Assembly: GCA_045631445.1 (NCBI GenBank) | Contig: JAZQUS010000067.1 | Span: forward strand, 9,020-73,019 | Direction: 5' to 3' | From: Eubacteriales bacterium | GTDB taxonomy: Bacteria > Bacillota > Clostridia > Oscillospirales > CAG-272 | DNA: 64,000 nt | In this document: piece by piece, positions 1 to 26,320 of the stretch | How positions within the stretch are numbered: the first letter of the stretch is position 1 | Layout of the letters: each line of letters opens with the position of its first letter | Position numbers and translations under genes: made by a program | The notes under the pieces: generated by a model | Told to the model about the DNA's origin: nothing | What the model saw: only the letters and a program-made list of their open reading frames with translations | The model's database searches: none

Positions 1-2
1 TT

Positions 3-1543: not shown

Positions 1544-1572
1544 TTGACTTTATTTACGTTTGGGTATATAAT
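1544..1572 (+). promoter_or_regulatory. sigma-A-type promoter of the glycan locus
   Basis: TTGACT (1544-1549), 17-nt spacer, TATAAT (1567-1572), about 85 nt upstream of the nanE-like start. Confidence 0.55.
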
Positions 1573-1655
1573 ATATTGAGTAGGTATAAATTGGATTTTA
1601 TTGTGTGCAGATTGCACAATTTAGACATGACATATATGTACAGAAAGGACAAAAA

Positions 1656-2333
1656 ATGAACCATTTAAAGAGAGGATTAATAGTATCGTGTCAGGCGGTT
1701 AAGGGTGAACCCCTTTACGGATACGGTATTATGCACTTATTTGCTAAAGCAGCTAAGGAGGGTGGGGCAACAGGTATTAGAGCTCTTGTCGACGATGTAG
1801 ATAGCATTAAGGACGAGGTTGGGCTTCCAATTATCGGTCTTGTAAAAGAAATCTATGATGATAGCGAAATATACATCACACCCACCAAAAAGGAAATCGA
1901 TAGATTGCTTGCAACAAAATGCGACGTTTTGTGTATGGATGCAACTCTTCGCACTCGTCCTGAGGGTGAAACACTTGAAGGACTTTATGAATATGCTCGC
2001 GCAAATGCTAACGGCAGAGAAATCATGGCTGACGTTTCAACTCTTGAAGAGGCAATAAACGCGGACAAGCTTGGTTTCGATTACATATCAACAACAATGA
2101 GAGGATATACACCTTATACAACTCAGTACGAAATTCCCGACGTTGATTTCGTTGCTGAATGTCAAAAGCACGTTAAAAATGCAAAGGTTATTGCAGAGGG
2201 TGGCGTTTTTGAGATTTCTCATATGGAGAAAATCTCAGAGGTTAATCCTTATGCGGTTGTAGTTGGTTCTGCAATTACTCGCCCTAAGGTTATTACAGAA
2301 AGATTGCTTGGAGCATTGAAATTAGAAGACTAA
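1656..2333 (+). CDS. nanE: N-acetylmannosamine-6-phosphate 2-epimerase-like protein
   Basis: LIVSCQA...GEPL N-terminal motif and TIM-barrel length (~225 aa) are typical of NanE. ATG at 1656 is preceded by GAAAGGAC. The upstream part of the listed ORF (1605) overlaps the promoter region. Confidence 0.8.
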   Translation: MNHLKRGLIVSCQAVKGEPLYGYGIMHLFAKAAKEGGATGIRALVDDVDSIKDEVGLPIIGLVKEIYDDSEIYITPTKKEIDRLLATKCDVLCMDATLRTRPEGETLEGLYEYARANANGREIMADVSTLEEAINADKLGFDYISTTMRGYTPYTTQYEIPDVDFVAECQKHVKNAKVIAEGGVFEISHMEKISEVNPYAVVVGSAITRPKVITERLLGALKLED

Positions 2334-2334
2334 T

Positions 2335-3825
2335 ATGAAGGTTGTTTACTTACCACTTGATGAAAGACCTTGCAATTATTATTTTGCAGGCAGAATAGCC
2401 AATGGCAGCGGGGTTGAGGTTATCACTCCCGATATGAGCGTTCTTGGAACTAAAAAGAATGCGGCTTCATTTGAGCGCGTATCTGAATTTCTTATTGAAC
2501 ACGCTAATGAGGCTGATGCTTACGTACTTTCAATGGATATGCTTCTTTACGGTGGCATTATTCCTTCAAGATTGCATCATTACGGTGAAGATGAGTTGAC
2601 AAAAAGACTCTCCGTTCTTGATGAAATTAAGAGAATTAATCCCAAAGCTAAAATATATGCGTTTGCGTTGATTATGAGATGTCCTTCTTATTCAAGTGCC
2701 GACGAAGAGCCGGACTATTATGAATATTGCGGAAGAGAAATTTTCCTTTCCGGTCAGGTTAAGCATAAGCTTCAGCTTGGCGTTATTCAAAAGGACGAAG
2801 CCGATGAGCTTATTGCTTCTTATGAAAAGGTTATTAATGGAAATCTTCCTGATTTTGAGGCAAGACGCGTAACGAATAGAAATATGCTTATTAAGGTGGT
2901 TGAAAGACTTCACCACTCAATTGATTTTTTGATTATTCCTCAAGATGATTCCGCAAAATACGGATATACGTCAATGGATAGAGAGGCAATTAAGCAGGAG
3001 CTTTCTGCAAAAGGGCTTGACGAGGTTGCTATGTATCCAGGCGCAGATGAGGTTGGAATGACATTGCTTGCTCGCGCGGCTTGTGAGTATAAGGGTGTAA
3101 CTCCCAAAATTTCTTGCAAATTTGCTCACGAAAATTCACACAATGTTATTCCTCTTTATGAGGATAGACCTGTTGGCTTGACTCTTCCTTTCCAAGTGGA
3201 AAGCGCGGGTTGCGTAATTGCTGAAGATGAGGATGCGGATATTGATTTGTATTTGAATTATCCTTCAAGAGAGCCTGTTGAGGTTTGGCAAGAAAAAAGC
3301 GCAGGTTATGACGAGCGAGATCTTGATGCGTTCGTTTTGAAAATTAAGAATAGCATTGAAGGTGGCAGAGTCACCGCATTAGCCGACGGTGCTTATTGCA
3401 ATGGCGGTGACAGAGAGCTTCTTCAAATGATTGATAGAGAGGTGGATATTCTTAAGCTTTCCGCTTATGCGGGCTGGAATACTTCATCCAATACCCTTGG
3501 AACTGTAATTTGTCAAGCAGTTTTTGTTTATCTTTTTGGTGACAATTCTTCTCAAAAGAGATTTTTGGCTGAAAGAGTTTACGAGGACGTTGGCTATTGC
3601 GGTTACGTAAGGGCTTACGTTACAAATAATTTACTTTCCGATTTGGGATTTGATTACTTCAACGCTGGAGAAAAAGACGGCGTGGTTGCTGCTTTGGTAA
3701 GAAAAGAGCTTGATGCTTTTATTGAAAAGCATTTTCCTAATATCTATGAAAGATATTGTATTTCAAAGTGTGAGATGCCTTGGAAAAGAATGTTTGAGGT
3801 GTACCTCGCGTTAGCGGACAAATAA
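2335..3825 (+). CDS. DUF4127 family protein (function unknown)
   Basis: N-terminus MKVVYLPLDERPCNYYF and ...SMDMLLYGGIIPSR... match my recollection of the DUF4127 (PF13552) signature. ~496 aa. The ATG lies 1 nt after the nanE stop. Confidence 0.65.
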   Translation: MKVVYLPLDERPCNYYFAGRIANGSGVEVITPDMSVLGTKKNAASFERVSEFLIEHANEADAYVLSMDMLLYGGIIPSRLHHYGEDELTKRLSVLDEIKRINPKAKIYAFALIMRCPSYSSADEEPDYYEYCGREIFLSGQVKHKLQLGVIQKDEADELIASYEKVINGNLPDFEARRVTNRNMLIKVVERLHHSIDFLIIPQDDSAKYGYTSMDREAIKQELSAKGLDEVAMYPGADEVGMTLLARAACEYKGVTPKISCKFAHENSHNVIPLYEDRPVGLTLPFQVESAGCVIAEDEDADIDLYLNYPSREPVEVWQEKSAGYDERDLDAFVLKIKNSIEGGRVTALADGAYCNGGDRELLQMIDREVDILKLSAYAGWNTSSNTLGTVICQAVFVYLFGDNSSQKRFLAERVYEDVGYCGYVRAYVTNNLLSDLGFDYFNAGEKDGVVAALVRKELDAFIEKHFPNIYERYCISKCEMPWKRMFEVYLALADK

Positions 3826-3840
3826 AAAATGAAAAAATCG

Positions 3841-3868
3841 AAATTTGGGCTAGCCCAAATGGTTTTGT
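3841..3868 (+). terminator. weak terminator-like palindrome after DUF4127
   Basis: AAATTTGGGCTAGCCCAAAT self-complementary stretch followed by GGTTTTGT. The T tail is poor. Confidence 0.3.
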
Positions 3869-3887
3869 ATGATACAATCATACAAAA
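3863..3887. promoter_or_regulatory. 25-nt perfect palindrome (candidate operator) enclosing an extended -10 box
   Basis: TTTTGTATGAT-ACA-ATCATACAAAA. The centre reads TGATACAAT (extended -10) at 3870-3878. It lies 70 nt upstream of the first GHL10 gene. Confidence 0.35.
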
Positions 3888-3956
3888 AATCAATCTATAG
3901 ACCTATTATACGAAAAACTTTACTTGTATTTCGTTGCGATCAGAACTGGAGTTATT

Positions 3957-5105
3957 ATGCATATATATACTGGCGCCGATATGGCGCAACAATCAAACGG
4001 TGAGCTAAGTGCTTCACAAATTAGAGGAGTTTGGCACAGACCTAATTCAAGTGAAAGAGAACGCAATCTCGACGAGCTTAAAGTAGTTCTTGATGAATTT
4101 AAGGAGGCGGGAATAAATCTTGTATTCCTTGAAACGTTCTATCACGGAATGGCGGTATATAAGACCGACCTTGTTGATTATCACATTAAGCTTGAAGGTT
4201 TTGAATACGGTGAATACCCCGATTACCTTTCCGCTTTTGTAGCAGAAGCAGAAAAGAGAGGCATTTCCGTATATGCTTGGGTGCAGGACTTTTATATTGG
4301 ATTTAGAGATTATATCCGTCTTGTTACCGAGCATCCCGAATGGCTTTTGATAAATCAATCGGGTGAGATTAGACACTTGACAGAGGGTCAGGGCTTTGGA
4401 GGATATATCTTCCTCGATCCTGCCAATGAAGAGGTTAAGGATTTTCTCATTTCAATTTATAGCGAAATTCTTACAAAGCACCCTGCGATAAAGGGTCTTA
4501 ACCTCGACTATATCCGTTATCCTATTTCGGAGTTTTCTGAGGGCACGGATACAGGTTACACAAAGATTTCAATGCTTGAATTTGCAAAAAAGCAGGGAAT
4601 TGAGCTTTGCGAAAATACTTCCATTAGTGATTTTAACAAGATTATTCGTGAAAAAGGTCTTGTTGGTGCGTGGACTGCTCATAGAGCCGCTTACGTAACG
4701 GGATTTGTTGAGAGAGTACACAATATGCTTGAGGAAAAGCATACCGGCAAGCTTATATCTACCGCTGTTTTTGCAGAGATAGGACAAACCTATGAATTGA
4801 AAAAGCAAAACATTAAGGTGTGGCTTGATAGCGGATACGTTGATTTTGTTACTCCAATGGTATATTTCTACGAGGCAGATCAAATTTTTGAATCTGTATC
4901 AAAAATGAAATCTATATGCGGTGATATTCCTTGTTATACAGGACTTTATACCACATATCATAAGCAAACACAAAGCGAGCTTTTGGAACATATTGATGCG
5001 AGCAAGCGCGCAGGTGCTAACGGATTTGTTCTTTTTGATGCGGCTAAAACATTTTTTGAAGCCGAAGTGGATTATAGAAGCGTTTTAGGTCAACTAAATG
5101 ACTAA
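3957..5105 (+). CDS. GHL10 (glycosyl hydrolase-like 10, PF02638/DUF187-like) protein, no signal peptide (cytoplasmic)
   Basis: RGVWHRP..., NLVFLETFYHGMAVY, FLDPANEEV and GLNLDYIRYP motifs are shared with the two downstream paralogs. GGAG lies 5 nt before the ATG at 3957. There is no N-terminal hydrophobic segment. Confidence 0.7.
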   Translation: MHIYTGADMAQQSNGELSASQIRGVWHRPNSSERERNLDELKVVLDEFKEAGINLVFLETFYHGMAVYKTDLVDYHIKLEGFEYGEYPDYLSAFVAEAEKRGISVYAWVQDFYIGFRDYIRLVTEHPEWLLINQSGEIRHLTEGQGFGGYIFLDPANEEVKDFLISIYSEILTKHPAIKGLNLDYIRYPISEFSEGTDTGYTKISMLEFAKKQGIELCENTSISDFNKIIREKGLVGAWTAHRAAYVTGFVERVHNMLEEKHTGKLISTAVFAEIGQTYELKKQNIKVWLDSGYVDFVTPMVYFYEADQIFESVSKMKSICGDIPCYTGLYTTYHKQTQSELLEHIDASKRAGANGFVLFDAAKTFFEAEVDYRSVLGQLND

Positions 5106-5160
5106 TAACAGTTCATTAATAAAATGAAAATAAATAAAAACAATTAATTTAGGGGGAAAA

Positions 5161-8100
5161 ATGAAAAGAAAAGTTTTAAAAATCAGTCTTGTTTGCTTAA
5201 TCCTTTCTCTTGTTGCTGTAATTGGTATCGGTATTTTCGCTATTGAAGGTGAATATACGCGTGATATTACAAAATACGGGCTCGCAGTGACAGCAAACGG
5301 TCAAGTAATCACTGGTGTATATTCAGACCCTGTTGATTATTGGGAAGTTGCAAGCAGTGGTACACTTAATGACTATGAAATTCGTTACGACACTGTTAAT
5401 GAAGTGGATTCTGTTATCTACACAGGCTTCTATCCTAATACAACAACAGGACGCGTTGGTGAAAACATTGTTGAGTATGTTTGCGAAAAGCAGGACAAAG
5501 CTTACGTTGTTACAAAAATCAACGAAAGTGGTGACGGTACTACCTATATTCCTTTGAACGGATTTGTGTTCTCTGTAAACAAAACTGTTGTATCCGATTT
5601 TGCAAATATTGGTGATGAAGTAGCAATCACAGGTGAAATCAGCATTCCCACAAGAGCTGTTGAATCAACCTCAGGTAAGAGAATAGTTGTTGATGCAACT
5701 AATGCAACACGTTCACAGCCCATGGTAGTTTACTATGACTACCAGTTTGGTGAAAAAACAGGTACTAACGTATTTGGTACCGAAATGATTTGCGAATTTA
5801 ATTTTGAAAAAAATACATTTATTGTAACAGGATTCCGTCCTTTCCTTTCCGGAGATGACTCAGGTTCCTATATTCCGGACAACGGATTTGTTCTCAGTGC
5901 TTACGGTGAGGGCTACCGCGCGCTTCTTGCTGCGGGTGAGCTTTTCAAAAAAGGCGATGAAGTGAAGATGGTTGGTTTTGATTACGTTCGTTTCGGTGGC
6001 ACTGTCCACGGAACATTCGATCATATTAACCCCACTAAAGAAACTAACCCAAGCGGTATGGAAACCGCAACAGATGAATTTCCTGCGTTCAGAGGTACTG
6101 ACCAAACGATTATTTATAAGGATGGTTGGGACTATAAGGGCTCTGCAGGAACAGGTACTAACGTTTACGGTTTCGAAGCAGCAGTTAATGCTAACGGTAT
6201 CGTAGTTGAGCTTGGTGTTAACGTTTCTAAAATTCCCGAGGGTGGTTACGTAATTTCAGGACACGGTATTGGACGTGACTTTATCCGTTCAAACGTTGTT
6301 CTTGGTGCAACAATCGTTCTTGATGAGGTTAATAAGACATATTCAGTTTCAACAACCCTTAATAGCTACTATGAAAACCTTGTTACTAATGTTGAAACAG
6401 TTATCGACGTTGCAAAGTCAAGAATCAAGCAGCTTTATGATGTAAACGTTGATGTTATTAACGAATATATCGCAAAGGTTGAAGCAGAGCTTGAAACTCT
6501 TCGTGTGCTTAAGGAATCTATTGAAGAAAAGCTTGCTGATCCTGATCTTACCGAAGAAGAGCGCTTGGCATTGCTTATGAATTATAACAATAGCCAGCTT
6601 AAGATTGAAAAGCTTCGTCAGAGCATCCTTGTTTCCTCTGCAGAGAGCAAGGTGGTTTCTGCTCGTGCAGTATGGCATAGACCTATTGAAGCAAATTATA
6701 CAGAAATCAAGACAAATGTTGAGATGTATAAGAAAATTGGTATCAACCTTATCTTCGTTGAGACTCTTTATAACGGATATTCTTCATTTAGAAGTGAAGT
6801 TGAAGAATTCCCCTATCATAAGAATCTTGCTGCTACATATACCGATGAAAACGGTAATGTATATAACGATTACCTCTCCGCTTTCCTTGCATGCTGCAAA
6901 GAAAACGGAATTGAAGTACATGCATGGGTTGAAAACTTCTACGTTGGTATTGATCCCCAAGTTACAGTATTGAAAATGCATCCTGATTGGGTAATGTATA
7001 ATGAAGACGGAACAACCGTTCAGCGTAATGAGGGTGGTCCTTATTACTTCATTGACCCCGCAAATAAGGAAGTTCAGGATACACTTATTGCTTATTATAA
7101 TGATCTTCTTGCAAAGAATCCCGAATTAGCAGGTCTTAATCTTGACTATATTCGCTATCCTGTTTCAAACGAAGTGGAGGATACAGGCTTTACAATGGCT
7201 GCAATGAAGGGCTTCTATGAACTTCTTGGCAAGGAATTTACAGCAAATCAGCTTTCTGATAGAACTAAGATGTATAATAAATTCAAACAGTTGTTTGATA
7301 AAAATTATCTTCTTGGCGGTCAGGCAGAAGCAGATGCTAACTATAAGCAATGGGTTAATTACCGCATGAGCGTTATTACAGAATACGTTCGTCGCATTAA
7401 GAACGAGGTTAAGGATGCAAACGGCGTTATGCTTTCAACATCCGTATTCGCTTCTTTGACAGAATCTACAAATTCCAAGAAGCAGGACTGGAGAACCTGG
7501 TTCCTTAACGGTTGGATTGACCTTGCAACTCCTATGGCATATTACACAGATGCTACAGACGTTAACGCAAGAGTTAAGGATATGATCCTTATGGCAGGTA
7601 ATAACTGCTTGTACTATACAGGTATCGCATCCTCTTATAGCGGACTTCCCGCATGGCAGAATAAGGAGCACATTGAAGCTTCTTACAATGCAGGCGCTAA
7701 TGGTTACGTAATTTTCTGTTCAACTCAGATTATCGGTCACGAGGACGTTCAAAATGCTCTTATGAGCGGTGTAAATAGCAAATGGGCAGTATTGCCTCAC
7801 GCAGCTATTGAAGAAGTTCTTACTGCTATGTTCGAAAGCATTCTCGATAAGGCAGACAGACTTTATATTCCCGCAGGCGGTATGACAGAGGAGAATAAGG
7901 CAGAGCTTGAAGCAATTTTTGCGGAAATTCTTGCAATGCCTCATGAAAATGCGGAAGATATTTATAATATTGTTAAGGCACTTCAGAGCTTGTCAAAGAC
8001 AGACATCAAGAACTATGCAAAGGGCTATTCTCGTCAGAGAATTATCGAACAGCTTAACGAGCTTGCTGATATTCTTGATGCAAGAATTTCAATGCAGCTT

Positions 8101-8310
8101 ATCGCAGACGGTGAATGGGATCCCGAAACAGACCCCATGCGTCCTTCATTCGAGGAAGAAAACAACAATACTCCCGTTGTTCCCAATCCTCCCGTTAATG
8201 ACAATACAAACGATAACAATAACACTCAAGAACCCGAGGAGCTTGGCTTCTTCGCAAGAATTATTCAGGCAATTATCCTCTTCTTCAAGAGATTGTTTGG
8301 CTTGGTATAA
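5161..8310 (+). CDS. surface multidomain GHL10 protein (1049 aa)
   Basis: Architecture: N-terminal signal/anchor (LVCLILSLVAVIGIGIFA), triple beta-module region, coiled coil, GHL10 domain, N/D/P-rich linker, C-terminal hydrophobic tail. The catalytic region carries ARAVWHRP, INLIFVETLYNGYS and GLNLDYIRYPVSN. The tail is FFARIIQAIILFFKRLFGLV. Confidence 0.75.
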   Translation: MKRKVLKISLVCLILSLVAVIGIGIFAIEGEYTRDITKYGLAVTANGQVITGVYSDPVDYWEVASSGTLNDYEIRYDTVNEVDSVIYTGFYPNTTTGRVGENIVEYVCEKQDKAYVVTKINESGDGTTYIPLNGFVFSVNKTVVSDFANIGDEVAITGEISIPTRAVESTSGKRIVVDATNATRSQPMVVYYDYQFGEKTGTNVFGTEMICEFNFEKNTFIVTGFRPFLSGDDSGSYIPDNGFVLSAYGEGYRALLAAGELFKKGDEVKMVGFDYVRFGGTVHGTFDHINPTKETNPSGMETATDEFPAFRGTDQTIIYKDGWDYKGSAGTGTNVYGFEAAVNANGIVVELGVNVSKIPEGGYVISGHGIGRDFIRSNVVLGATIVLDEVNKTYSVSTTLNSYYENLVTNVETVIDVAKSRIKQLYDVNVDVINEYIAKVEAELETLRVLKESIEEKLADPDLTEEERLALLMNYNNSQLKIEKLRQSILVSSAESKVVSARAVWHRPIEANYTEIKTNVEMYKKIGINLIFVETLYNGYSSFRSEVEEFPYHKNLAATYTDENGNVYNDYLSAFLACCKENGIEVHAWVENFYVGIDPQVTVLKMHPDWVMYNEDGTTVQRNEGGPYYFIDPANKEVQDTLIAYYNDLLAKNPELAGLNLDYIRYPVSNEVEDTGFTMAAMKGFYELLGKEFTANQLSDRTKMYNKFKQLFDKNYLLGGQAEADANYKQWVNYRMSVITEYVRRIKNEVKDANGVMLSTSVFASLTESTNSKKQDWRTWFLNGWIDLATPMAYYTDATDVNARVKDMILMAGNNCLYYTGIASSYSGLPAWQNKEHIEASYNAGANGYVIFCSTQIIGHEDVQNALMSGVNSKWAVLPHAAIEEVLTAMFESILDKADRLYIPAGGMTEENKAELEAIFAEILAMPHENAEDIYNIVKALQSLSKTDIKNYAKGYSRQRIIEQLNELADILDARISMQLIADGEWDPETDPMRPSFEEENNNTPVVPNPPVNDNTNDNNNTQEPEELGFFARIIQAIILFFKRLFGLV

Positions 8311-8328
8311 TTAAATGCAATTCGAGAA

Positions 8329-10467: not shown

Positions 10468-10542
10468 AACCGAAATTCAAATGATTTTCAGATGCTTTGC
10501 ATCTTAAAATAAAAAATTAATTAATACTTAGGAGGTATTACT

Positions 10543-15843: not shown

Positions 15844-15878
15844 AAAATAAATTAAATTAACTCATAAGGAGAAACAAA

Positions 15879-17435: not shown

Positions 17436-17459
17436 AACATTATCAAAGGAGTGCACAAT

Positions 17460-18401: not shown

Positions 18402-18403
18402 TT

Positions 18404-19279
18404 ATGGCAAAGAATTTAATAGTAAAAAAGAGCAATAAAATCAAAGAAAATCGTTTGTTTAACACTATAAACGTTATAGCGTTGGCAATTATATCGATTG
18501 TCTGCTTTATACCATTTCTTAACGTATTGTCCGTAGCATTGTCAACTGCGGGAAATGATATTAACTTTACTCCCAAGGGATTTACTTGGTTTAACTTTCA
18601 GTACGTTTTAACTGACGCTGGATTTTGGAGAGCAATGGGAGTATCCTTCCTTGTGGTTGTATGTGGTACATTACTTTCAGTAACTGTAATGTTCGCGGCG
18701 GCTTACGCATTGTCTAAACCTAATTTCCCTGCAAGAAAGGGCATTATGGTATTCTTTATTATCGTAATGATCTTCTCAGGCGGTATGGTACCCAACTACC
18801 TCGTAGTTAGTACATTGGGACTTACTAAAACTCCTCTGGCTCTGATTTTGCCATCGGTTGTTCAGGTTTATAACCTTATTTTGATCAGAAGCTATCTTGA
18901 AGGACTTCCTCTCGAGCTTGAGGAATCTGCATCCATTGACGGAGCGAACAACCTTCAGATTATGTTCAAAATATTGTTGCCAATGTCAATGCCTTGCGTA
19001 GCAAGTGTAAGCTTGTTCACAGCTGTAACGCTTTGGAATAACTACACAAGCGCGTTGCTTTATCTTGGTACTGAAGAAAAATGGTACCCCTTGTCGCTTT
19101 ATATTCTTAACTACATCCAGTTGCCTCCTGATACTCTTTCAGTAGCAATGAAGGATTTGCAGAAGGATAATATTGAAGCGGCTATGATCGTTGTTAGTAT
19201 AATTCCCATCTTGTTAGTATACCCATTGGTACTTAAGTACTTTACAAAGGGTGTAACAGTTGGTGCAGTAAAGGGATAA
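18404..19279 (+). CDS. carbohydrate ABC transporter permease (LplC/MalG-like)
   Basis: TM-rich with the loop LEESASIDGANNLQIMFKILLP. ATG at 18404 lies 2 nt after the upstream stop. Confidence 0.85.
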   Translation: MAKNLIVKKSNKIKENRLFNTINVIALAIISIVCFIPFLNVLSVALSTAGNDINFTPKGFTWFNFQYVLTDAGFWRAMGVSFLVVVCGTLLSVTVMFAAAYALSKPNFPARKGIMVFFIIVMIFSGGMVPNYLVVSTLGLTKTPLALILPSVVQVYNLILIRSYLEGLPLELEESASIDGANNLQIMFKILLPMSMPCVASVSLFTAVTLWNNYTSALLYLGTEEKWYPLSLYILNYIQLPPDTLSVAMKDLQKDNIEAAMIVVSIIPILLVYPLVLKYFTKGVTVGAVKG

Positions 19280-19280
19280 T

Positions 19281-20147
19281 ATGACCATATGTATTGATAT
19301 GGGTGCAACCGAAATAAAGGTTGCACCCATTAAAAGAAGTGAAAACAAATTAATCGTTGGTGAGCTTAATAAGTTTCCCACCAACGCTTCCCTTGGAAAA
19401 GAGGGAATAGTGGATGCTTTATATAGAGCAATATCTTCATTGAATGGAGAGGATGTTGATGGCATTGCCATTGCGTCTGCAGGTGATATTGACGTTAACA
19501 CTTCAATTATCACCTATGCAACGGAAAATCTCCCTGGAATGATAGGGTTTGATTTTGCGAAGTTTTGTAAAGAAAATTTTAATCTGCCTGCCAAGGCAAT
19601 AAACGATGCTCACGCGGCTTTGCTTGGTGAAATGGTTTATGGCGCAGGAGAAAAATATCAGGACAAAAGAGTTGTAATGCTTACTCTTGGTTCAGGTGTT
19701 GGCGGCGGATATTATGCAGGCGGAGAAATCGTTTCAAACGAAGAAAATGATTTTGGCCGCTTTGGACATATCTGTCTTGAAAATGACGGAAGACTTTGCA
19801 CATGCGGTAAACGTGGATGTGTGGAGATGTATTTGTCAGGTCGTGCAATACATAGAGATGCAGACGCAATCGGTATTGATGGGGCGGACATTTTTGAAAA
19901 ATACGGAAAGGGAGAACCCAAAAACGTTGAATTTGTTAACGTTTTGAGAGCAAATCTTAAAAAATCTCTTGATTTGGTTATGCAGGTTAGCCCATTTGAC
20001 GTATGTATTATCGGCGGCGGTGTTGCCGATTGGATGGAGGAGCATTTTTACTCCATTACCGATGGTTTAGGATATAATATTATTAGAGCATCACTCGGTA
20101 ATAGCGCTGGCTTTTACGGAGCGTATGCTCACTACAACAAGCACTAA
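19281..20147 (+). CDS. ROK family sugar kinase (possibly ManNAc/GlcNAc kinase)
   Basis: N-terminal ICIDMGATEIKVA (ASKHA phosphate-1 motif) and the ROK zinc motif CTCGKRGCVEMYLSG. The start lies 1 nt after the permease stop. Confidence 0.8.
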   Translation: MTICIDMGATEIKVAPIKRSENKLIVGELNKFPTNASLGKEGIVDALYRAISSLNGEDVDGIAIASAGDIDVNTSIITYATENLPGMIGFDFAKFCKENFNLPAKAINDAHAALLGEMVYGAGEKYQDKRVVMLTLGSGVGGGYYAGGEIVSNEENDFGRFGHICLENDGRLCTCGKRGCVEMYLSGRAIHRDADAIGIDGADIFEKYGKGEPKNVEFVNVLRANLKKSLDLVMQVSPFDVCIIGGGVADWMEEHFYSITDGLGYNIIRASLGNSAGFYGAYAHYNKH

Positions 20148-20255: not shown

Positions 20256-21854
20256 ATGAAAACGCTAAACGCACAAGTAATCATTTGCGGTGCTTCACTT
20301 GGTGGCACAATCGCAGCAATTAGTGCTGCTAAAGAAGGAAAAAAGGTTATTCTTCTTGAAAAAACAAAATGGATTGGAGGTCAGCTTACCTCCCAAGCAG
20401 TTCCTCCCGATGAGCATATGTGGATAGAGGAGCAGGGCTGCACACGTTCATATCAGGAATACAGAACCAAGGTTAGAAGCTATTATAGAAATCTTGAGGG
20501 ATATTCCGAAGAAATCAAAAATAGAGACTATTTCTGCCCAGGTGCGTCCGAGGTTAGCTGGATTGCTCATCCCCCTCGTCTTGCTCTTTCTATTCTTAAC
20601 GATATGGTTGCTCCTTACGTTGAAAACGGCAATTTGACCATCTATACTGAGGTTCAGATGAAGGAATGTATCACAGAGGGTGATGAAATCAAGGGTGTTG
20701 TATATAATATTGACGGTGAAGATGTATTGCTTACAGGTGAATACTATCTTGACGGTACTGATATTGGTGATCTTATCTGTATTTCAGGTACTGAATATCG
20801 CGTTGGTGCGGAAAGTAGACACGAAACAGGTGAAGAGGACGCTCCCGAGGTGGGAGACTCTGAGGATATGCAGTCATTCATCTATTCCGCTTGTATTGAA
20901 AATAGACGCGAAGGTGATTACACTATCGAAAAGCCTGAGCTTTATGATAAATTCAGTCAGATGATGATGCCTTACGATGAGCATAAGCTTTATTCAATGT
21001 ACGGCCCCAACTCATCTACAGGTAAGGCGAAAAAGTTCGGTATGTTCCTTGAGGAATTTAACGAAGAGGGAAAAGAGCTTTTCCCATTGTTTAAATACAG
21101 AAGAATCGTTTGTGCGGATTACTTCACCGACGGAAGCCAGCCCTATGACGTAACACTTGTGAACTGGCCTCAAAACGACTTCTTCCACGGCAACCTTTTT
21201 GATTGTGAGGACGCGGAATATAACGATTATCTTGCAAAGCAATATACTCTTTGCTTCGTATATTGGCTTCAGACCGAAGCACCAAGATATGACGGTGGCA
21301 AGGGTTATCCCTATTTTAGATTAGCACCCGAATACGTTGGTACAGAGGACGGATTGTCAATGGCTCCATATATTAGAGAGTCAAGACGTATCAAAGCAAA
21401 AAAGACTATTACCGCTACTGATGTTTGCGATGCCGAAAAATGCAAATTTGAAGATAGTGTTGGTGTTGGAAGTTATCCTATTGACCTTCATATCACCACA
21501 AAAACACATACCTTCTTCTATAAACCAACACATAGATTTACAATTTCTCTTGGAGCAATGATTCCCGAGAGGATGAAGAATATTTTGCCTGCTTGTAAGA
21601 ATATTGGCTCAACCCATCTTACTAACGGTTGCTACCGCTTGCATCCTGTTGAATGGAACGTGGGTGAGGTTGCAGGACTTCTTGCTTCCTTTGCAATAGA
21701 TAAGGGTGTGCTTCCCGTTAATGTCTGGGAGAGCAAGGAATTGTTCGACGAATTCTGCTTGTTGCTTGACAAACACGGAATTCAGAGATATTGGGACGAA
21801 AATAATCTTGAAGCAGGATATGAGCGCGTTAAAAAGCTCAAAACCTTTGCTTAA
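20256..21854 (+). CDS. FAD-dependent oxidoreductase (PF12831-like)
   Basis: N-terminal dinucleotide-binding fold VIICGASLGGTIAAISAAKEGKKVILLEK..IGGQ. The ~530-aa size is typical of the FAD_oxidored family often seen in glycan loci. Confidence 0.7.
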   Translation: MKTLNAQVIICGASLGGTIAAISAAKEGKKVILLEKTKWIGGQLTSQAVPPDEHMWIEEQGCTRSYQEYRTKVRSYYRNLEGYSEEIKNRDYFCPGASEVSWIAHPPRLALSILNDMVAPYVENGNLTIYTEVQMKECITEGDEIKGVVYNIDGEDVLLTGEYYLDGTDIGDLICISGTEYRVGAESRHETGEEDAPEVGDSEDMQSFIYSACIENRREGDYTIEKPELYDKFSQMMMPYDEHKLYSMYGPNSSTGKAKKFGMFLEEFNEEGKELFPLFKYRRIVCADYFTDGSQPYDVTLVNWPQNDFFHGNLFDCEDAEYNDYLAKQYTLCFVYWLQTEAPRYDGGKGYPYFRLAPEYVGTEDGLSMAPYIRESRRIKAKKTITATDVCDAEKCKFEDSVGVGSYPIDLHITTKTHTFFYKPTHRFTISLGAMIPERMKNILPACKNIGSTHLTNGCYRLHPVEWNVGEVAGLLASFAIDKGVLPVNVWESKELFDEFCLLLDKHGIQRYWDENNLEAGYERVKKLKTFA

Positions 21855-21881
21855 TTTTAATGATGTGTTTGGAGGGTGACT

Positions 21882-23024
21882 ATGCTTGCTATAAAAAACG
21901 CAAAAATAGTTCTTGAAAATGGAATATTAGAAGGAAAAGCATTGCTTCTTTCCGACAAAATTGAGGGAATAGTAGAGGAAAACGAAATTCCCGAAGGTAT
22001 TGAAATAATCGATTGCAAGGGCGGTTACGTAACTCCCGGATTTATCGACTTGCACATTCACGGATATTTAGGCAAGGACGTTTGCGATGCTACTGCCGAA
22101 AGCATCAGAACAATCGCAGGCGGACTTGTAGAGAACGGTGTTACAGGCTTTTTGCCTACAACTATGACCGTTGATATGTCCGTTATTAACGGAGCACTCA
22201 ATGCTTGCCGAGAGGTTAAAAATAGCGGTGAGTACTATGGCTCTCAAATCCTTGGTGTGCACGCTGAAGGACCTTTCATCTCCGCATCTAAAAAGGGTGC
22301 GCAGGATGAAAGATTTATCTTGAAGCCCGATGCGGATTTCGTAAGGGCAAATGCCGATATCATTAAGATAATCACACTCGCTCCCGAAGAGGACAAGGAT
22401 TTCCTTGAAATAAAGAGAATGGCGGACGAAACCGACGTTGTTGTTTCTATGGGACATACATCTGCAGATTACAAAACTGCTATGGAAAGCGCAAAGAACG
22501 GTGTAAAGCATGCAACACATCTTTTTAATGCGATGACTCCTATGACTCATCGCGCACCCGGTGTTGTTGGTGCAGCACTTAATTCGGACGTTTCTTGCGA
22601 ACTTATTGTTGATACGTATCACGTTGATCCCGCTCTTTATGAAATGGTTTACAAGATGAAGGGAAGAAAGCTCTGCTTTATCACCGACTGTTTGCCTGCA
22701 GGAGGACTTCCCGAGGGTGAATATACACTCGGAGGCGCAAAGATTATCTATAAGAACAATCTTTGTAAGCTTGAAGATGGAACAATCGCAGGTAGTGTTC
22801 TTAAACTCAATAAGGGTGTTTGGAACGTGTTTAGTAATACAAGTATTCCTCTTTATGAGTGTGTGAACTGCGCAACTCTCAACCCTGCAACTACTATCGG
22901 TGTTGCCGATAGAAAGGGCTCTATTGAGGTTGGTAAAGATGCAGATATTGTTGTGCTTGATGATGAGTTTAACGTAAGGAAAACTATTATTGGAGGCGTT
23001 GTAAGATATGAAGCTAAAAATTGA
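21882..23024 (+). CDS. nagA: N-acetylglucosamine-6-phosphate deacetylase
   Basis: GFIDLHIHG metal-binding motif, HLFNAM, and ~380 aa. ATG at 21882 lies 6 nt after GGAGG (the listed GTG at 21876 abuts the RBS). Confidence 0.9.
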   Translation: MLAIKNAKIVLENGILEGKALLLSDKIEGIVEENEIPEGIEIIDCKGGYVTPGFIDLHIHGYLGKDVCDATAESIRTIAGGLVENGVTGFLPTTMTVDMSVINGALNACREVKNSGEYYGSQILGVHAEGPFISASKKGAQDERFILKPDADFVRANADIIKIITLAPEEDKDFLEIKRMADETDVVVSMGHTSADYKTAMESAKNGVKHATHLFNAMTPMTHRAPGVVGAALNSDVSCELIVDTYHVDPALYEMVYKMKGRKLCFITDCLPAGGLPEGEYTLGGAKIIYKNNLCKLEDGTIAGSVLKLNKGVWNVFSNTSIPLYECVNCATLNPATTIGVADRKGSIEVGKDADIVVLDDEFNVRKTIIGGVVRYEAKN

Positions 23025-24384
23025 TGCAAAGCTCGATAAGGGCTTTATGCCCATGGCTCTTGTGTGCCGTGAGATGAGAGAGAACACCGTAGATAACGGT
23101 CAAGACCTCATCGTTGCGGTTGAAAGAAATCAGGGCTATACATACGTTTATAAAACAAGAATATATAAGGATAACACAGGTCACGACGAAGAAAACTGCA
23201 AGTTTATCGATAGAATTGCTAAAACTCTTTTGTGGGTTGCAGGCGGCTATAAGGTAACTATCGCAGGTAGTGAAGTTGTTGGTGAATATATCAAAAACAC
23301 ATTCTGCTATGGTGGAACAAGAGATTTCGACGTTCGCTTTATGGAGAGAGTTTACGAGGAGAAGTTTGAAGTTATCGCAACTGACCTTGCAAATGCCCCC
23401 GAAGAAAAAAGCTCTGCTTGTCCCGTTGGTAAGCACCTTGACGGATGTCGTATCGGATTTGACGCGGGCGGCTCCGACAGAAAGGTTTCTGCCGTTGTTG
23501 ACGGTGAAACTGTTTACTCTGAAGAGGTCGTTTGGTTCCCCAAGCTCAACTCCGACCCAAGCTATCACTATGAGGGCATTTTGAATGCTATGAAAACAGC
23601 AGCATCACATATGCCAAGAGTTGATGCTATCGGTGTTTCAAGCGCAGGTGTTTACATTGACAATAAAATTATGGTCGCATCTCTCTTTATCAAGGTAAAT
23701 GATGAAGATTTTGAAAAGACAGTAAAGAATATGTATATAGACGTTGCACGCGAGATTGGTGAAAATATTCCGATTGAGGTTGCAAACGACGGTGACGTAA
23801 CTGCTCTTGCAGGTGCTATGAGCCTTGAGGATAACGGAATTCTCGGTATTGCTATGGGCACAAGTGAAGCGGCAGGCTACGTTGATATGGACGGAAACAT
23901 CACAGGTTGGCTCAATGAGTTGGCATTCGCTCCCGTTGACTACAACGAGGGGGCAATGGTTGACGAGTGGTCGGGTGACTACGGTTGTGGAGTTAAGTAT
24001 TTCTCACAGGACGGAGTTATTAAACTCGCACCATACGCAAATATCGACCTTGATGAAAACCTCTCTCCCGCAGAAAAACTTAAGGTTGTTCAGAACCTTA
24101 TGAAAGATGGCGACGAAAGAGCAAAGGCAATTTATGAAACAATCGGTGCATATTTCGGCTATTCACTTGCTTACTACGCTGAATTTTACGATATAAAGCA
24201 CGTTCTCATTATGGGACGAGTAACAAGTGGTGAGGGTGGAGAAATCCTCTTAAACAAAGCAAGAGAGATAATCGCAACTGAATTCCCCGAATTAAATAAG
24301 AAGATGACTCTCAATATCCCCGACGAAAAGGCAAGAAGAGTAGGACAGTCTGTGGCTGCTGCAAGCTTGCCCAAAATCAGATAA
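23008..24384 (+). CDS. ROK-like/ASKHA-fold sugar kinase homolog with ~140-aa N-terminal extension
   Basis: RIGFDAGGSDRKVS and VANDGDVTALAGA resemble ROK phosphate-1 and adenosine motifs. No CxCGxxGC zinc motif is seen. It overlaps the nagA stop by 17 nt. Confidence 0.6.
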   Translation: MKLKIDAKLDKGFMPMALVCREMRENTVDNGQDLIVAVERNQGYTYVYKTRIYKDNTGHDEENCKFIDRIAKTLLWVAGGYKVTIAGSEVVGEYIKNTFCYGGTRDFDVRFMERVYEEKFEVIATDLANAPEEKSSACPVGKHLDGCRIGFDAGGSDRKVSAVVDGETVYSEEVVWFPKLNSDPSYHYEGILNAMKTAASHMPRVDAIGVSSAGVYIDNKIMVASLFIKVNDEDFEKTVKNMYIDVAREIGENIPIEVANDGDVTALAGAMSLEDNGILGIAMGTSEAAGYVDMDGNITGWLNELAFAPVDYNEGAMVDEWSGDYGCGVKYFSQDGVIKLAPYANIDLDENLSPAEKLKVVQNLMKDGDERAKAIYETIGAYFGYSLAYYAEFYDIKHVLIMGRVTSGEGGEILLNKAREIIATEFPELNKKMTLNIPDEKARRVGQSVAAASLPKIR

Positions 24385-24393
24385 TTTATTAAT

Positions 24394-25239
24394 ATGATCT
24401 ATACAATTAAAAACGACAAAACCGAAGTAAAAATCAATTCCCTCGGCGCAGAGGTGCGAAGCGTAGTTCACAATGGAAAAGAACGTGCTTGGCAGAACGA
24501 AACGGGAGAGTGGTCTGGATGTGCAATCTTGCTTTTCCCATTCGCAGGCTTTAACCGACTTGTATTTGACGGAGTTGATTTCGGTATTCAAAAGCACGGA
24601 TTTTGCAGAAGTGAAGAATTTGAGCTGACAGAAGCAAAAAATGATAATATTACCTTTGTTCTTCGTGCAAACGAGAGAACCAAGGCAGTTTATCCCTATA
24701 ATTTCGAGTTTTTTGTGAAATACGCGCTCATTGAAAACGGATATGAGGTTTCATATACCATAAAAAACACAAGTGAAAAGGAAATCCCTCTCGCGTGTGG
24801 TGGACACGAGTCCTTCGCACTTGATAATGAAGTAGAAAACTACTATGTTGAATTTGAAAAGGAAGAACATTTTGACTTTCTTATTCATAATTCAGGTGGT
24901 ATGCTCACAGGTGAGAAAATAAATCACGGAGCGGGTAAAATTTTGCCTCTCGAAAAGGATTTTACTGATAATAGCGCAACTGTTATTCTCGGCAATATCA
25001 ATTCAAGAAAAGCAACACTTAAAGATAAGAAAACCGATGAAAAGGTGGTTGAAATCACATTCGACGGCTTTTCAAATCTTCTTTTGTGGCATCCACACGG
25101 CTCAAAAATGCTTTGCATTGAGCCTTGGCAGTGCTTACCCTCATACGTTGATGAAATCAAAGAATTCAAAGAAAGAGATGGCGTAGTAATTCTTGAAAAG
25201 GGCGAGCAAATCACCTTTACAAGAGCAATCAAATACTAA
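24394..25239 (+). CDS. aldose 1-epimerase family (LacX/YoxA-like mutarotase) protein
   Basis: LLFPFAGF...QKHGFCR motif and the ~280-aa beta-sandwich size are typical of the family. Confidence 0.7.
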   Translation: MIYTIKNDKTEVKINSLGAEVRSVVHNGKERAWQNETGEWSGCAILLFPFAGFNRLVFDGVDFGIQKHGFCRSEEFELTEAKNDNITFVLRANERTKAVYPYNFEFFVKYALIENGYEVSYTIKNTSEKEIPLACGGHESFALDNEVENYYVEFEKEEHFDFLIHNSGGMLTGEKINHGAGKILPLEKDFTDNSATVILGNINSRKATLKDKKTDEKVVEITFDGFSNLLLWHPHGSKMLCIEPWQCLPSYVDEIKEFKERDGVVILEKGEQITFTRAIKY

Positions 25240-25252
25240 TAAAAGGATTATT

Positions 25253-26284
25253 ATGAATATAGTTAAGCTTATACCCGCCTATAAAAGCATTATTTGGGGC
25301 GGAAATAAACTCAAAACTGAATATGGCAAGGATACCGACCTTTCTCCATTGGCAGAAACTTGGGAGCTTGCATTCCACAAAGACGGCAAAAGTATGCTCG
25401 AAGACGGCAGAGCACTTTGTGATGTTGTAACTGAAGAGGAGCTTGGTGAAAATTGCCGTGGCTTTGATTTCTTTCCCGTGCTTGTTAAATTTATTGATGC
25501 TCAGGATAAGCTTTCCGTTCAGGTGCATCCTGCCGATGAATATGCCTTAAAGCACGAAAATTCACTCGGCAAAACTGAAATGTGGTACATCGTTGATGCG
25601 GACGAGGGCGCAGGAATTTATCTTGGCTTTAAGCAGGATATTACAAAGGAGCAGTTCGTTCGAGCAATCGAGGAGAAAACTCTTACCGATTATCTTAAAT
25701 TTATCCCTGTTAAAAAGGGAGAGAGCTATTTTATCCCTTCGGGTACTATTCACGCGATTTGCTCGGGTTGTCTTATTTGTGAAATTCAGCAAAATAGCAA
25801 CATTACATACCGCGTTTACGATTATGGCAGACGCGATAAAAACGGAAACGAGCGCGAGCTCCACGTTCAAAAAGCTATTGATGTTACAAATCTCTCCGCA
25901 CTTGAACCAAAGGAATTGAACATTCAGGTTAAGGACGGAGTTTTGAAGGGAATCAATAAGTTCTTTACCGCAACCTACGTTGACATAAACGGTGAAAAGG
26001 CGTTTGCGGAAGATAAAAACTCATTCCGTTGCTTCACTTGTCTTGAGGGTGATGGAATGATAGGGGATATGCCTATTAAAAAGGGAGAGTCCGTTTTCGT
26101 TCCTGCAACCTTTGATGATTTTGTTGTGAGAGGAAATTTCACGGCAATAATGACCACAATTCGCAAGTACTATTTGAAAAATGGTAAAATCGAAAATGAC
26201 CTCGGTGAAATAATCGCGGAGGGCAACGATGAAAAAGAATTGCTCAATAGATGCGGCTTAACTGTGGCAGATATTGAAAAATAA
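25253..26284 (+). CDS. manA: mannose-6-phosphate isomerase, class I
   Basis: IWGG, LSVQVHP, GKTEMWYI and IPSGTIHAI motifs. ATG at 25253 follows AAAGGA. The listed upstream extension overlaps the previous gene. Confidence 0.85.
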   Translation: MNIVKLIPAYKSIIWGGNKLKTEYGKDTDLSPLAETWELAFHKDGKSMLEDGRALCDVVTEEELGENCRGFDFFPVLVKFIDAQDKLSVQVHPADEYALKHENSLGKTEMWYIVDADEGAGIYLGFKQDITKEQFVRAIEEKTLTDYLKFIPVKKGESYFIPSGTIHAICSGCLICEIQQNSNITYRVYDYGRRDKNGNERELHVQKAIDVTNLSALEPKELNIQVKDGVLKGINKFFTATYVDINGEKAFAEDKNSFRCFTCLEGDGMIGDMPIKKGESVFVPATFDDFVVRGNFTAIMTTIRKYYLKNGKIENDLGEIIAEGNDEKELLNRCGLTVADIEK

Positions 26285-26286
26285 CT

Positions 26287-26320
26287 AAAGCACCAAGCAA
26301 AACGCTTGGTGCTTTTTTGT
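26287..26320 (+). terminator. strong intrinsic terminator closing the glycan locus
   Basis: AAAGCACCAAGC/GCTTGGTGCTTT 12-bp stem followed by a T run. Confidence 0.85.

Follow-up and report, generated by a model that had tools for sequence, protein, structure and literature searches.

The locus described here is a unit of sixteen genes in the window, by which we mean the whole stretch of 64,000 nucleotides analysed from a Eubacteriales bacterium (contig JAZQUS010000067.1, positions 9,020 to 73,019), and its closest described counterparts are the N-glycan system of Streptococcus pneumoniae, the nan clusters of Firmicutes, the GHL10 enzymes Cwp19 and DigH, the NAGPA "uncovering enzyme" and the enzymes of peptidoglycan and teichoic acid recycling. 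The pneumococcal system reportedly combines NgtS-P1-P2 with cytoplasmic GH38, GH125 and GH20C enzymes and a ROK kinase. The Firmicute nan clusters comprise the RpiR-type regulator NanR, a SatABC-type importer, NanA, the ROK kinase NanK, NanE and an esterase. Cwp19 of Clostridioides difficile is a GHL10 protein, as we take DigH of Escherichia coli to be. The former is a peptidoglycan lytic transglycosylase of solved structure (PMC6016235, PMC5765458), the latter degrades denuded peptidoglycan glycans (PMC12288456), and both prefer peptide-free strands; a further GHL10-related protein, DogH, is the subject of a paper whose title concerns starch (PMC9967864). The window locus very probably represents a conserved surface-to-cytoplasm glycan utilization system built mostly from uncharacterized families, and its informative hub is a DUF4127 protein, coupled to the N-acetylmannosamine-6-phosphate (ManNAc-6-P) 2-epimerase NanE, a ROK kinase and a PF12831 FAD-dependent oxidoreductase-like protein (FADox), rather than the three GHL10 proteins, a point missed by an earlier note made from the sequence alone (the original prediction).

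The architecture is a known one, that of a Gram-positive polysaccharide utilization locus (PUL) of the ATP-binding cassette (ABC) type with a nan-like lower pathway; novelty would lie in the proposed substrate and in three or more of the enzyme activities. As in Gram-positive PULs, genes for a substrate-binding protein (SBP), permeases and glycosidases are co-directional, and a regulator (RpiR) is seen in relatives, at a position that lies outside the window. Like the S. pneumoniae N-glycan system, the locus would combine cutting at the surface, SBP-dependent ABC import, and cytoplasmic exo-glycosidases with a ROK kinase, a scheme already proposed in the original prediction and supported here in general; GH38 and ROK are common to both, GH20C occurs in the wider set of DUF4127 loci, and the SBP (g08) is distantly related to NgtS. 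Unlike that system, the window locus has no endo-beta-N-acetylglucosaminidase, GH92 or GH125, its predicted depolymerases being GHL10, NAGPA and DUF4127 proteins, and its pathway would run via ManNAc and NanE, which are not needed for N-glycan catabolism. With the nan clusters the system shares RpiR, a NanK-like ROK kinase, NanE, NagA, an SBP with two permeases, O-acetyl esterases and the conversion of ManNAc via ManNAc-6-P to N-acetylglucosamine-6-phosphate (GlcNAc-6-P), whereas NanA and a sialidase are absent both from the window locus and from the recurrent neighbour clusters that were annotated, and ManNAc is proposed to come from a glycoside via DUF4127, not from N-acetylneuraminic acid. 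Two of its GHL10 proteins (g04 and g05) are predicted to be surface-displayed, as Cwp19 is; in contrast to Cwp19 and DigH, one window paralogue is cytoplasmic and the setting is catabolic, not autolytic. The recycling of peptidoglycan and teichoic acids (NagZ, NamZ, MurQ, GlpQ, PhoD and ShfP-like enzymes) has the theme of Gram-positive wall-polymer turnover in common with the locus, yet none of these enzymes is encoded in it, and we know of no described recycling route that handles the ManNAc-GlcNAc linkage unit or the backbone of secondary cell-wall polymers (SCWP). Calcineurin phosphoesterases of the ShfP family are sometimes fused to NAGPA domains (bioRxiv 10.1101/2024.03.27.587046). The phosphodiester glycosidase of the locus (g07) shares with NAGPA and with bacterial DUF2233 proteins (3ohg, 6pki; PMC13474241) the PF09992 domain, the DGGGS motif and the succession of catalytic domain, Cys-rich stalk and membrane anchor; it differs from NAGPA in its low identity to the vertebrate enzymes and in its proposed target, a sugar-1-phosphate diester of a wall polymer and not GlcNAc-1-P-6-Man on lysosomal enzymes.

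The DUF4127 gene (g02, 2335-3825, + strand) encodes a cytoplasmic candidate ManNAc-releasing hydrolase that matches PF13552 with 490.8 bits (cut-off 27), residues 3-491 covering profile positions 1-488 of 489. When one genome was scanned for each species, 259 DUF4127 loci were obtained, the best 80 of which were analysed for partner genes by tblastn or by clustering of open reading frames (ORFs); in the following, L numbers are labels of loci and P numbers those of representative proteins. NanE accompanies DUF4127 in 53 of these 80 loci, ABC permeases in about 41 and GHL10 in about 31 (all by tblastn). ORF clustering places an RpiR regulator in 45 loci, a ROK kinase in 25, FADox in 21, GH20C hexosaminidases in 19, CE2/SGNH O-acetyl esterases in 18 and GH84 hexosaminidases in 8; GHL10 of the window type was found in 29 loci and a cytoplasmic GHL10-DUF4985 type without signal peptide in 21, the two types being clustered separately and jointly reaching as many as 50 loci should they share none. 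No useful literature was found on the function of DUF4985. NagA, NagB or an AgaS-like isomerase are occasional partners.

Fusions join the same set of proteins. DUF4127 is fused to NanE in three cases (L052, L056 and P0282), to ROK in six representative proteins and to GHL10 in three (P0109, P0117 and P0241), and single cases link it to FADox (P0383), to an SGNH esterase (P0259) and to an alpha/beta-hydrolase, or link ROK to FADox (P0173). In two loci (L028 and L031) DUF4127 adjoins an epimerase of the AGE family, with GH78, GH2 beta-mannosidase-like and DUF4838 genes nearby; with the model for N-acyl-glucosamine 2-epimerase this AGE protein reaches 384 bits, short of the curated cut-off (600), and with that for cellobiose 2-epimerase it reaches 96 bits. 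NanE and AGE are non-homologous, and therefore two unrelated ManNAc epimerases accompany DUF4127. The simplest reading is that DUF4127 would yield ManNAc, to be phosphorylated by ROK and converted by NanE, and we lean towards such a release of ManNAc by DUF4127.

The conservation of the locus sets this core apart from its surroundings. The window belongs to an uncultured lineage of Clostridia from the ruminant hindgut and shows 86% identity to metagenome-assembled genomes (MAGs) from yak and sheep colon. Down to about 40-48% identity, 26 loci (L001-L025 and L029) share the gene order GH38-NanE-DUF4127-GHL10-GHL10(-GHL10)-lipoprotein-NAGPA-SBP-permease. An RpiR gene lies directly upstream of GH38 in at least seven loci (L002, L004, L006, L007, L012, L015 and L021), and RpiR is present in 15 loci of the window's clade by ORF clustering. 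The contexts of FADox homologues of 82%, 70% and 57% identity keep the series GHL10-lipoprotein-NAGPA-SBP-permease-permease-ROK-FADox. The co-conservation proposed in the original prediction was thus found for GH38 and genes g01 to g12, that is through FADox, down to about 40-57% identity, and not for the last four genes (NagA, g14, g15 and ManA), which vary: L081 and L161 have this tail, L162 and L163 lack it, and relatives in general carry all, part or none of it. A metagenome scan with g14, meant as a conservation test of the downstream half, was dropped in favour of the FADox homologues, g14 being mostly unlinked. In Firmicutes and Mollicutes further removed from the window (Lachnospiraceae, Paenibacillus, Solobacterium, Haloplasma, Acholeplasmatales) the DUF4127 core stays and there is no GH38, lipoprotein or NAGPA. 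An Acholeplasmatales MAG (L055) carries three tandem DUF4127 paralogues beside GHL10 and GH84 genes and Haloplasma contractile (L039) two DUF4127 copies; the family is locally expanded in wall-less or reduced Mollicutes-like lineages.

The AlphaFold (AF2) model of DUF4127 is confident, with a predicted local distance difference test score (pLDDT) of 93.8 and a predicted template modelling score (pTM) of 0.93. Searched by sequence, as a single protein and as a profile, and by fold, DUF4127 gave nothing significant in the PDB; weak matches to pyridoxal kinase, DJ-1, sugar SBPs and SIS domains were non-significant and were not used. No paper on DUF4127 was found in the literature by family name or by accession codes. 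The earlier statement that GHL10 has no defined substrate is wrong, Cwp19 and DigH being known to cleave peptidoglycan. The family is composed of 2369 clusters at 50% identity among 1.84 billion representative proteins, and forms with a signal peptide or a lipobox exist among the representatives. Some DUF4127 proteins are exported, and the reaction should therefore need no cytoplasmic cofactor; on account of the secreted and lipoprotein forms, the idea of a kinase or of an enzyme confined to phospho-sugars was dropped. Across 102 diverse DUF4127 sequences the acidic residues D9, D204, D205, D238, E276 and D418 and the arginines R11, R79, R115, R178, R426 and R485 are invariant with at most one exception each, and D351 is conserved in 101 of the 102; this set of acidic residues and arginines would fit a glycosidase acting on an anionic sugar. 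A catalytic role of Cys13 was considered and dropped, the residue being Val, Leu or Phe in secreted and other divergent forms, including a phage protein. One representative of 766 aa (P0368) carries a C-terminal extension (about 490-766) unlike any protein of the window, which by eye resembles aminoglycoside 3-N-acetyltransferase-type proteins.

Several lines link DUF4127 to cell-wall polymers. A library of viral protein structures gave one significant match to DUF4127 (E 1.3e-30, TM score 0.80), leading to the Bacillus cereus phages PBC6 and BC01. The gene PBC6_092 (KT187252.1, L167 5992-8073), annotated as "S-layer domain-containing protein", encodes DUF4127 followed by S-layer homology (SLH) repeats, and BC01 carries the same gene; its annotated start leaves out 25 in-frame upstream codons (MAKQIVVIPLDNRPVS...) with the conserved N-terminal motif PLDxRP. 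SLH domains bind SCWP via pyruvylated beta-ManNAc, and the SCWP repeat of the B. anthracis/cereus group is ->4)-beta-ManNAc-(1->4)-beta-GlcNAc-(1->6)-alpha-GlcNAc-(1-> (PMC6030368, PMC6081394, PMC5568421). In Paenibacillus selenitireducens (L061) an operon of DUF4127, NanE, ROK and FADox opens with a 1553-aa GHL10 protein carrying three SLH domains, next to which lies a calcineurin-like phosphoesterase, where the window has NAGPA. Genes for secreted DUF4127 proteins adjoin either a group made up of a G5-3D protein, MurJ and an NlpC/P60 peptidase or the exo-muramidase NamZ. The linkage unit of teichoic acids is ManNAc-beta-1,4-GlcNAc-1-P. The SBP of the common type of DUF4127 locus is closest to MsBP (E 7.5e-45), an SBP whose cleft is positively charged and whose preferred ligands are phospho-sugars. 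The SLH fusions, the neighbours, the MsBP-like SBP and the known peptidoglycan activity of GHL10 enzymes point to peptidoglycan-anchored polymers of ManNAc and GlcNAc, such as SCWP and the linkage unit of wall teichoic acid (WTA), as the substrate class.

The position of some secreted DUF4127 genes among cell-wall housekeeping genes could also be taken to indicate that the system remodels or turns over the wall of the organism itself, as an autolysin would, and does not acquire nutrients, and Cwp19 and DigH are indeed autolytic or remodelling enzymes; we consider this extremely unlikely in view of the catabolic layout, in which surface enzymes and an SBP-dependent importer are combined with kinases, NanE, NagA and ManA, with RpiR upstream in relatives. 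Recycling of the own wall would share the pathway proposed here, and the two readings differ mainly in the source of the substrate.

Of the three GHL10 proteins, the cytoplasmic paralogue (g03, 3924-5105, + strand; PF02638 at 1.6e-21), a glycosidase-like TIM barrel, has no signal peptide. The larger of the two predicted surface proteins (g04, 5161-8310, + strand, 1049 aa) consists of an N-terminal transmembrane (TM) or signal segment, three unannotated repeats (about 35-400), a coiled region, the GHL10 domain and a C-terminal hydrophobic tail, and the smaller one (g05, 8329-10467, + strand, 712 aa) ends in a tail as in g04. On PF02638 the three score 77.2, 62.2 and 55.6 bits (gathering score 27.9), and g04 and g05 align with g03 at 38% and 40% identity. 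For the extracellular GHL10 catalytic domain, the PDB gave nothing beyond a marginal match to an alpha-galactosidase (E 0.0018), which was not used. The cytoplasmic g03 matches the Cwp19 structure 5oq2 at E 1.5e-8. Asp196, in the D195-D196-Y197 motif on strand beta4, stands out among the residues proposed to form the active site of Cwp19 (PMC5765458), and the HMMER alignment of g03 to 5oq2 sets L-D-Y-I-R-Y-P of the window GHL10 against F-D-D-Y-F-Y-P of Cwp19. Asp195 is kept, Asp196 is replaced by Tyr or Arg in six of six GHL10 proteins from DUF4127 loci, and an invariant Arg follows two residues on.

Scavenging of peptidoglycan strands would give this family its described role: GHL10 proteins would cut between N-acetylmuramic acid (MurNAc) and GlcNAc, and DUF4127 with NanE and FADox would replace the MurQ etherase, for example by taking the lactyl ether off MurNAc-6-P to give ManNAc-6-P. 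The action of Cwp19 and DigH on peptidoglycan, with their liking for peptide-free strands, fits this, as do the many O-acetyl esterases, the NamZ gene that adjoins a secreted DUF4127, and the RpiR regulators of 45 of the 80 loci, which are presumably similar to MurR, a sensor of MurNAc-6-P; the many arginines in the invariant set would match a substrate with carboxylate and phosphate, and MurQ is absent from the window locus and from the annotated neighbour proteins, where the SIS-domain proteins are limited to RpiR regulators and the AgaS-like isomerase. However, no muropeptide peptidase occurs among the annotated neighbours and no MurNAc-L-Ala amidase there or in the window locus, the lactyl-ether chemistry is without precedent, the AGE-type epimerases beside DUF4127 use unphosphorylated ManNAc, secreted DUF4127 cannot use a cytoplasmic 6-phosphate substrate, and the GHL10 proteins of DUF4127 loci differ from Cwp19 at Asp196. 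We judge peptidoglycan scavenging to be unlikely.

The surface front end of the window locus continues with a 1206-aa lipoprotein (g06, 10543-14163, + strand; lipobox LTAC), putatively glycan-binding, which has Ig-like domains (Bact_surface_Ig-like at 7.2e-13) and 65 Cys in 8-Cys modules (HxCESVCPxCGLCLxxxCxxxxCxxKCxGH) placed between unannotated repeats of about 140 aa. Four copies of the repeat are clear and a fifth may lie at 170-335, with 27-46% mutual identity; the three repeats of g04 are weaker than these, and neither those of g04 nor those of g06 had a Pfam match at E<=1 when searched in isolation. Both kinds of repeat may be glycan-binding modules. The lipoprotein is kept at the same position of the locus in relatives, and shorter Cys motifs are also seen in the stalk of g07 (15440-15710).

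The NAGPA/DUF2233-type phosphodiester glycosidase (g07, 14242-15843, + strand) is predicted to be secreted and C-terminally anchored through a Cys-rich stalk. It scores 88.1 bits on PF09992 (cut-off 25) and matches PDB 3ohg at 8.6e-13 and vertebrate NAGPA chains at E about 1e-3. No substrate of any bacterial NAGPA was found in the literature, and to our knowledge none has been established. Residues 358-362 of g07 are the DGGGS motif, in ...FALELDGGGSSTMVV..., and a structural study of 2026 describes the DGGGS catalytic loop as invariant from bacteria to man, with human D286 as the catalytic Asp, R316 binding the phosphate, and E226 and T227 contacting the N-acetyl group of GlcNAc (PMC13474241). 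Arg385 of g07 lies 27 residues after the Asp of DGGGS, a spacing that by eye, no structural alignment having been made, is similar to that of D286 and R316 in the human enzyme.

Hydrophobic or amphipathic tails are shared by the C-termini of g04 (...GFFARIIQAIILFFKRLFGLV, 8230-8310), g05 (...SFFAKLIEAIMLFFKMLLGLA, 10390-10467) and g07 (...SFAAWIQAIIDAIIKFFMELFS, 15760-15843), and the orthologues of these proteins end either in this tail or in a TM helix with a KKRK-type tail. Because the tail takes the position of that helix and its KKRK-type end, g04, g05 and g07 are predicted to be held at the cell surface; the shared tail may represent a motif for surface anchoring or sorting at the C-terminus that has not been described before. 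The N-termini agree with this, a signal peptide or TM segment being found in g04, g05 and g07 and a lipobox in g06 (LTAC) and g08 (ATSC), with no export signal in g02 and g03. The surface location proposed earlier for the large enzymes is thus borne out by N-terminal signals and, in orthologues, by C-terminal anchors.

An oligosaccharide importer is predicted from the SBP lipoprotein g08 and the permeases g09 and g10 (15879-19279, + strand; lipobox ATSC, two BPD_transp_1 domains); an ATPase gene for it is absent from the locus. The SBP assignment holds by its matches to solved sugar SBPs, Pfam giving no match at E<=0.01, and the nearest solved relatives are structures of the pneumococcal N-glycan SBP NgtS (5swa/5swb, E 7e-8). 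Together with the cytoplasmic GH38 and ManA, the NgtS-like g08 suggests that the substrate of this clade also carries mannose. On such grounds the target could be a eukaryotic mannose-rich phosphoglycan, that is N-glycans of the phosphorylated or high-mannose kind or phosphomannan from fungi or protozoa, in which NAGPA would uncover sugar-1-P-6-Man, GH38 trim alpha-mannose, ManA use Man-6-P and N-acetylhexosamine enzymes process the chitobiose core. GH38 upstream and ManA at the end of the unit, the nearness of g08 to NgtS, and the cleavage of GlcNAc-1-P-6-Man by eukaryotic NAGPA, whose DGGGS motif g07 keeps, all favour it, as does the frequency in DUF4127 loci of GH20C, which is said to belong to the pneumococcal N-glycan locus as well. 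N-glycans and mannans contain no ManNAc, however, yet DUF4127 is most tightly coupled to a NanE or AGE epimerase; Pfam detected no GH18, GH85, GH92, GH125 or GH130 among the 16 window proteins; the core is also present in Paenibacillus from soil and in a phage of B. cereus; ManA is absent from close relatives; and the NgtS match is weak (E 7e-8). A eukaryotic target is accordingly improbable for the system as a whole. Phosphomannan or N-glycans, which the original prediction had listed beside a teichoic-acid-like wall polymer with sugar-1-phosphate linkages, may apply to the clade-specific parts (GH38, ManA and the NgtS-like SBP) and do not explain the conserved core, whereas the teichoic-acid-like polymer is favoured by the independent evidence of the SLH links and of the neighbours of secreted DUF4127.

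The lower pathway opens the unit with NanE (g01, 1605-2333, + strand; PF04131 at 5.8e-47), which scores above the curated NCBIfam cut-off (NF002231, PRK01130; 250.8 bits against 189). The NanK-like ROK sugar kinase g11 (19281-20147, + strand; PF00480 at 3.5e-40) is a candidate ManNAc kinase; its best NCBIfam models are those of ManNAc kinase, at 110.8 and 109 bits and below the cut-offs of 283 and 450, and by these scores general ROK membership alone is established. FADox (g12, 20256-21854, + strand; PF12831 at 1.8e-91) has a confident AF2 model (pLDDT 91.8) and would belong to the ManNAc branch, because homologues are fused to ROK (P0173) and to DUF4127 (P0383). No useful literature on the function of PF12831 was found. 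It is pure speculation that FADox might remove a pyruvate ketal or otherwise unmask the sugar; a 2019 review on the pyruvylation of sugars mentions no enzyme that takes pyruvate ketals off.

The variable tail (21876-26284, + strand), assigned by Pfam and NCBIfam, consists of NagA (g13), a ROK-like protein of 458 aa (g14), an aldose-1-epimerase-like protein of 281 aa (g15) and ManA (g16). NagA matches Amidohydro_1 and TIGR00221 (378.3 bits, cut-off 225.65) and ManA matches PMI and TIGR00218 (133.7 bits, cut-off 116.2); g15 matches Aldose_epim and g14 has a weak Pfam ROK match. At 50-70% identity g14 (23008-24384) is found in many gut metagenome contigs, mostly without the rest of the locus and sometimes beside NagA, and judged by these matches it stands for a separate, conserved family of sugar-kinase-like proteins that has no name.

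With RpiR, NanE, a NanK-like ROK kinase, an SBP with two permeases, O-acetyl esterases and NagA, and with no NanA-type lyase in Pfam scans of the 16 window proteins, the system could be read as a variant pathway for sialic or other nonulosonic acids, in which DUF4127 replaces the NanA lyase and ManNAc or an analogue arises from a nine-carbon sugar. Such a variant is very unlikely: neither the window locus nor the annotated recurrent neighbours include a sialidase, GH20C, GH84 and GHL10 being present instead, secreted and SLH-fused phage forms of DUF4127 would be senseless for a cytoplasmic lyase, and the DUF4127 model has no significant match to solved folds, aldolases included.

In the mechanism that we infer, in which all substrates and the reactions of DUF4127, the GHL10 proteins, g06, g07 and FADox are predictions, the lipoprotein g06 would hold the polymer at the cell surface, the anchored GHL10 proteins g04 and g05 would cut the glycan backbone, and the NAGPA-type g07 would cleave a sugar-1-phosphate anchor or repeat linkage. 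Oligosaccharides would be imported by g08-g10, and the cytoplasmic GHL10 g03 and DUF4127 would complete the depolymerization, DUF4127 freeing ManNAc. The latter would be phosphorylated by the ROK kinase g11, converted to GlcNAc-6-P by NanE and deacetylated by NagA, while GH38 and ManA would process mannose side groups or repeats, the PF12831 flavoprotein would act at some step on the ManNAc branch, and the RpiR regulator located beyond the window would control the unit. Candidate polymers are of the SCWP type or are teichoic acid linkage units with beta-ManNAc-(1->4)-GlcNAc, attached by a GlcNAc-1-phosphate diester and often O-acetylated or otherwise anionic. The full model, according to which the substrate is a peptidoglycan-anchored secondary cell-wall glycopolymer of other bacteria, is the likeliest of the readings considered, and we give it even chances. 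A more far-reaching joint reading is put forward tentatively and with some doubt. DUF4127 would be a new glycoside hydrolase family, the missing exo-beta-N-acetylmannosaminidase (possibly for anionic, e.g. pyruvylated, ManNAc), in the first system by which gut Clostridia feed on the SCWP and WTA linkage units of other Gram-positives; NAGPA would detach wall polymers from peptidoglycan, the distant GHL10 proteins would be the backbone depolymerases, and PF12831 would provide a new ManNAc unmasking step.

Several observations weigh against this interpretation. The DUF4127 fold, compared with 350,542 PDB chains, gave nothing significant (best E 1.3e-3, TM score <=0.26), and so no relative that would mark it as a glycosidase, and no beta-N-acetylmannosaminidase was found in the literature. 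The fusions and neighbourhoods establish functional coupling and not the order of reactions, and the phage SLH fusion indicates wall targeting, not the identity of the bond cleaved. The window GHL10 proteins, which score 55-77 bits on the family model, are far removed from Cwp19, with its proposed catalytic Asp196 replaced. The structure search assigned no reaction to FADox, Foldseek returning the generic FAD-binding fold alone at TM scores of about 0.3 (FrdA/SdhA flavoproteins, the 3-ketosteroid dehydrogenase KstD, urocanate reductase and aromatic hydroxylases). GH38, ManA and the SBP near NgtS speak for glycans rich in mannose, a feature left unexplained by SCWP or WTA linkage units of the typical kind, and NAGPA, g06 and GH38 are confined to the window's clade, so that front end and core may differ in history.

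The sixteen ORFs (g01-g16) follow one another head to tail on the + strand between 1605 and 26284, with junctions of -47 to +108 nt, and the co-directional genes, the promoter and the terminator were all located where they had been predicted. By inspection of the sequence, the NanE start is likelier to be ATG 1657, which is preceded by an AAAGGA ribosome-binding site, than 1605, and the likelier ManA start at ATG 25253 would abolish the -47 overlap. A sigma-70-type promoter-like site upstream of NanE (1544-1572, + strand; TTGACT-17-TATAAT, 11 of 12 positions) has the top score in 1-20000, tied with one other site, and comes after a terminator-like hairpin of GH38's own at about 1444-1475. The unit ends at an intrinsic terminator (26287-26320, + strand) with a 13-bp stem (AAAGCACCAAGC...GCTTGGTGCTTT) followed by a T-run. 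The GH38 alpha-mannosidase gene, correctly placed just upstream by the original prediction and part of the conserved locus, is incomplete: its 3' part (1-1439, + strand; Pfam Glyco_hydro_38C at 8.5e-40, Alpha-mann_mid and 38C2), encoding a predicted cytoplasmic protein, runs off the 5' edge of the window with a reading frame open from base 3. Its orthologues have about 973 aa, no signal peptide and the gene order RpiR-GH38-NanE, and from these relatives the RpiR gene and the remainder of GH38 are placed beyond the 5' end of the window. All family assignments of the original prediction were confirmed with hidden Markov models, those of Pfam for NanE, DUF4127, the three GHL10 proteins, NAGPA, the permeases, ROK, PF12831, NagA, the ROK-like protein, Aldose_epim and PMI, and those of NCBIfam for NanE, NagA and ManA.

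Between g06 and g07 lies a GC-rich 10-bp hairpin (CCCCATCGCC-TTCG-GGCGATGGGG, 14199-14222), without a T-tract on the + strand, which could be an mRNA processing or stabilizing element or a partial attenuator. Downstream of the unit, a strong promoter-like site (26438-26467, 11 of 12 positions, extended -10 TG) precedes an AT-rich leader, some 180 nt long, and a terminator-like hairpin (26660-26683) that overlaps the first possible start of g17 (26650-27699), a separate membrane protein with four 41-aa repeats. The genes beyond the locus are housekeeping genes (ThrRS, ValRS with a T-box, Alr, ComEC, PcrA, DprA, TopA and SMC). The T-box leader (33901-34129, - strand, 147.7 bits), upstream of the ValRS gene (31186-33960), is the sole Rfam match in the whole window, with none for the leader 26320-26650 or the hairpin 14199-14222. 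Among the DUF4127 loci of other genomes, an Eis-like GNAT acetyltransferase (Acetyltransf_9, Acetyltransf_17 and SCP2_2) occurs near DUF4127 in four unrelated loci (L061:15713-16924, L057, L078 and L165:4142-5305), and some Paenibacillus-type loci also carry a Gfo/Idh/MocA oxidoreductase and a xylose-isomerase-like TIM barrel protein.

WTA and SCWP make up a large share of Gram-positive biomass, and we know of no catabolic route for their ManNAc-GlcNAc units. With the present analysis DUF4127 gains a concrete, testable function, and bacterial NAGPA and a divergent GHL10 subfamily could gain their first physiological setting. If true, the proposed system would show how gut and soil Firmicutes recycle bacterial wall debris, and it would supply enzymes for stripping the SLH-anchoring polymers from pathogens of the B. 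cereus/anthracis group.

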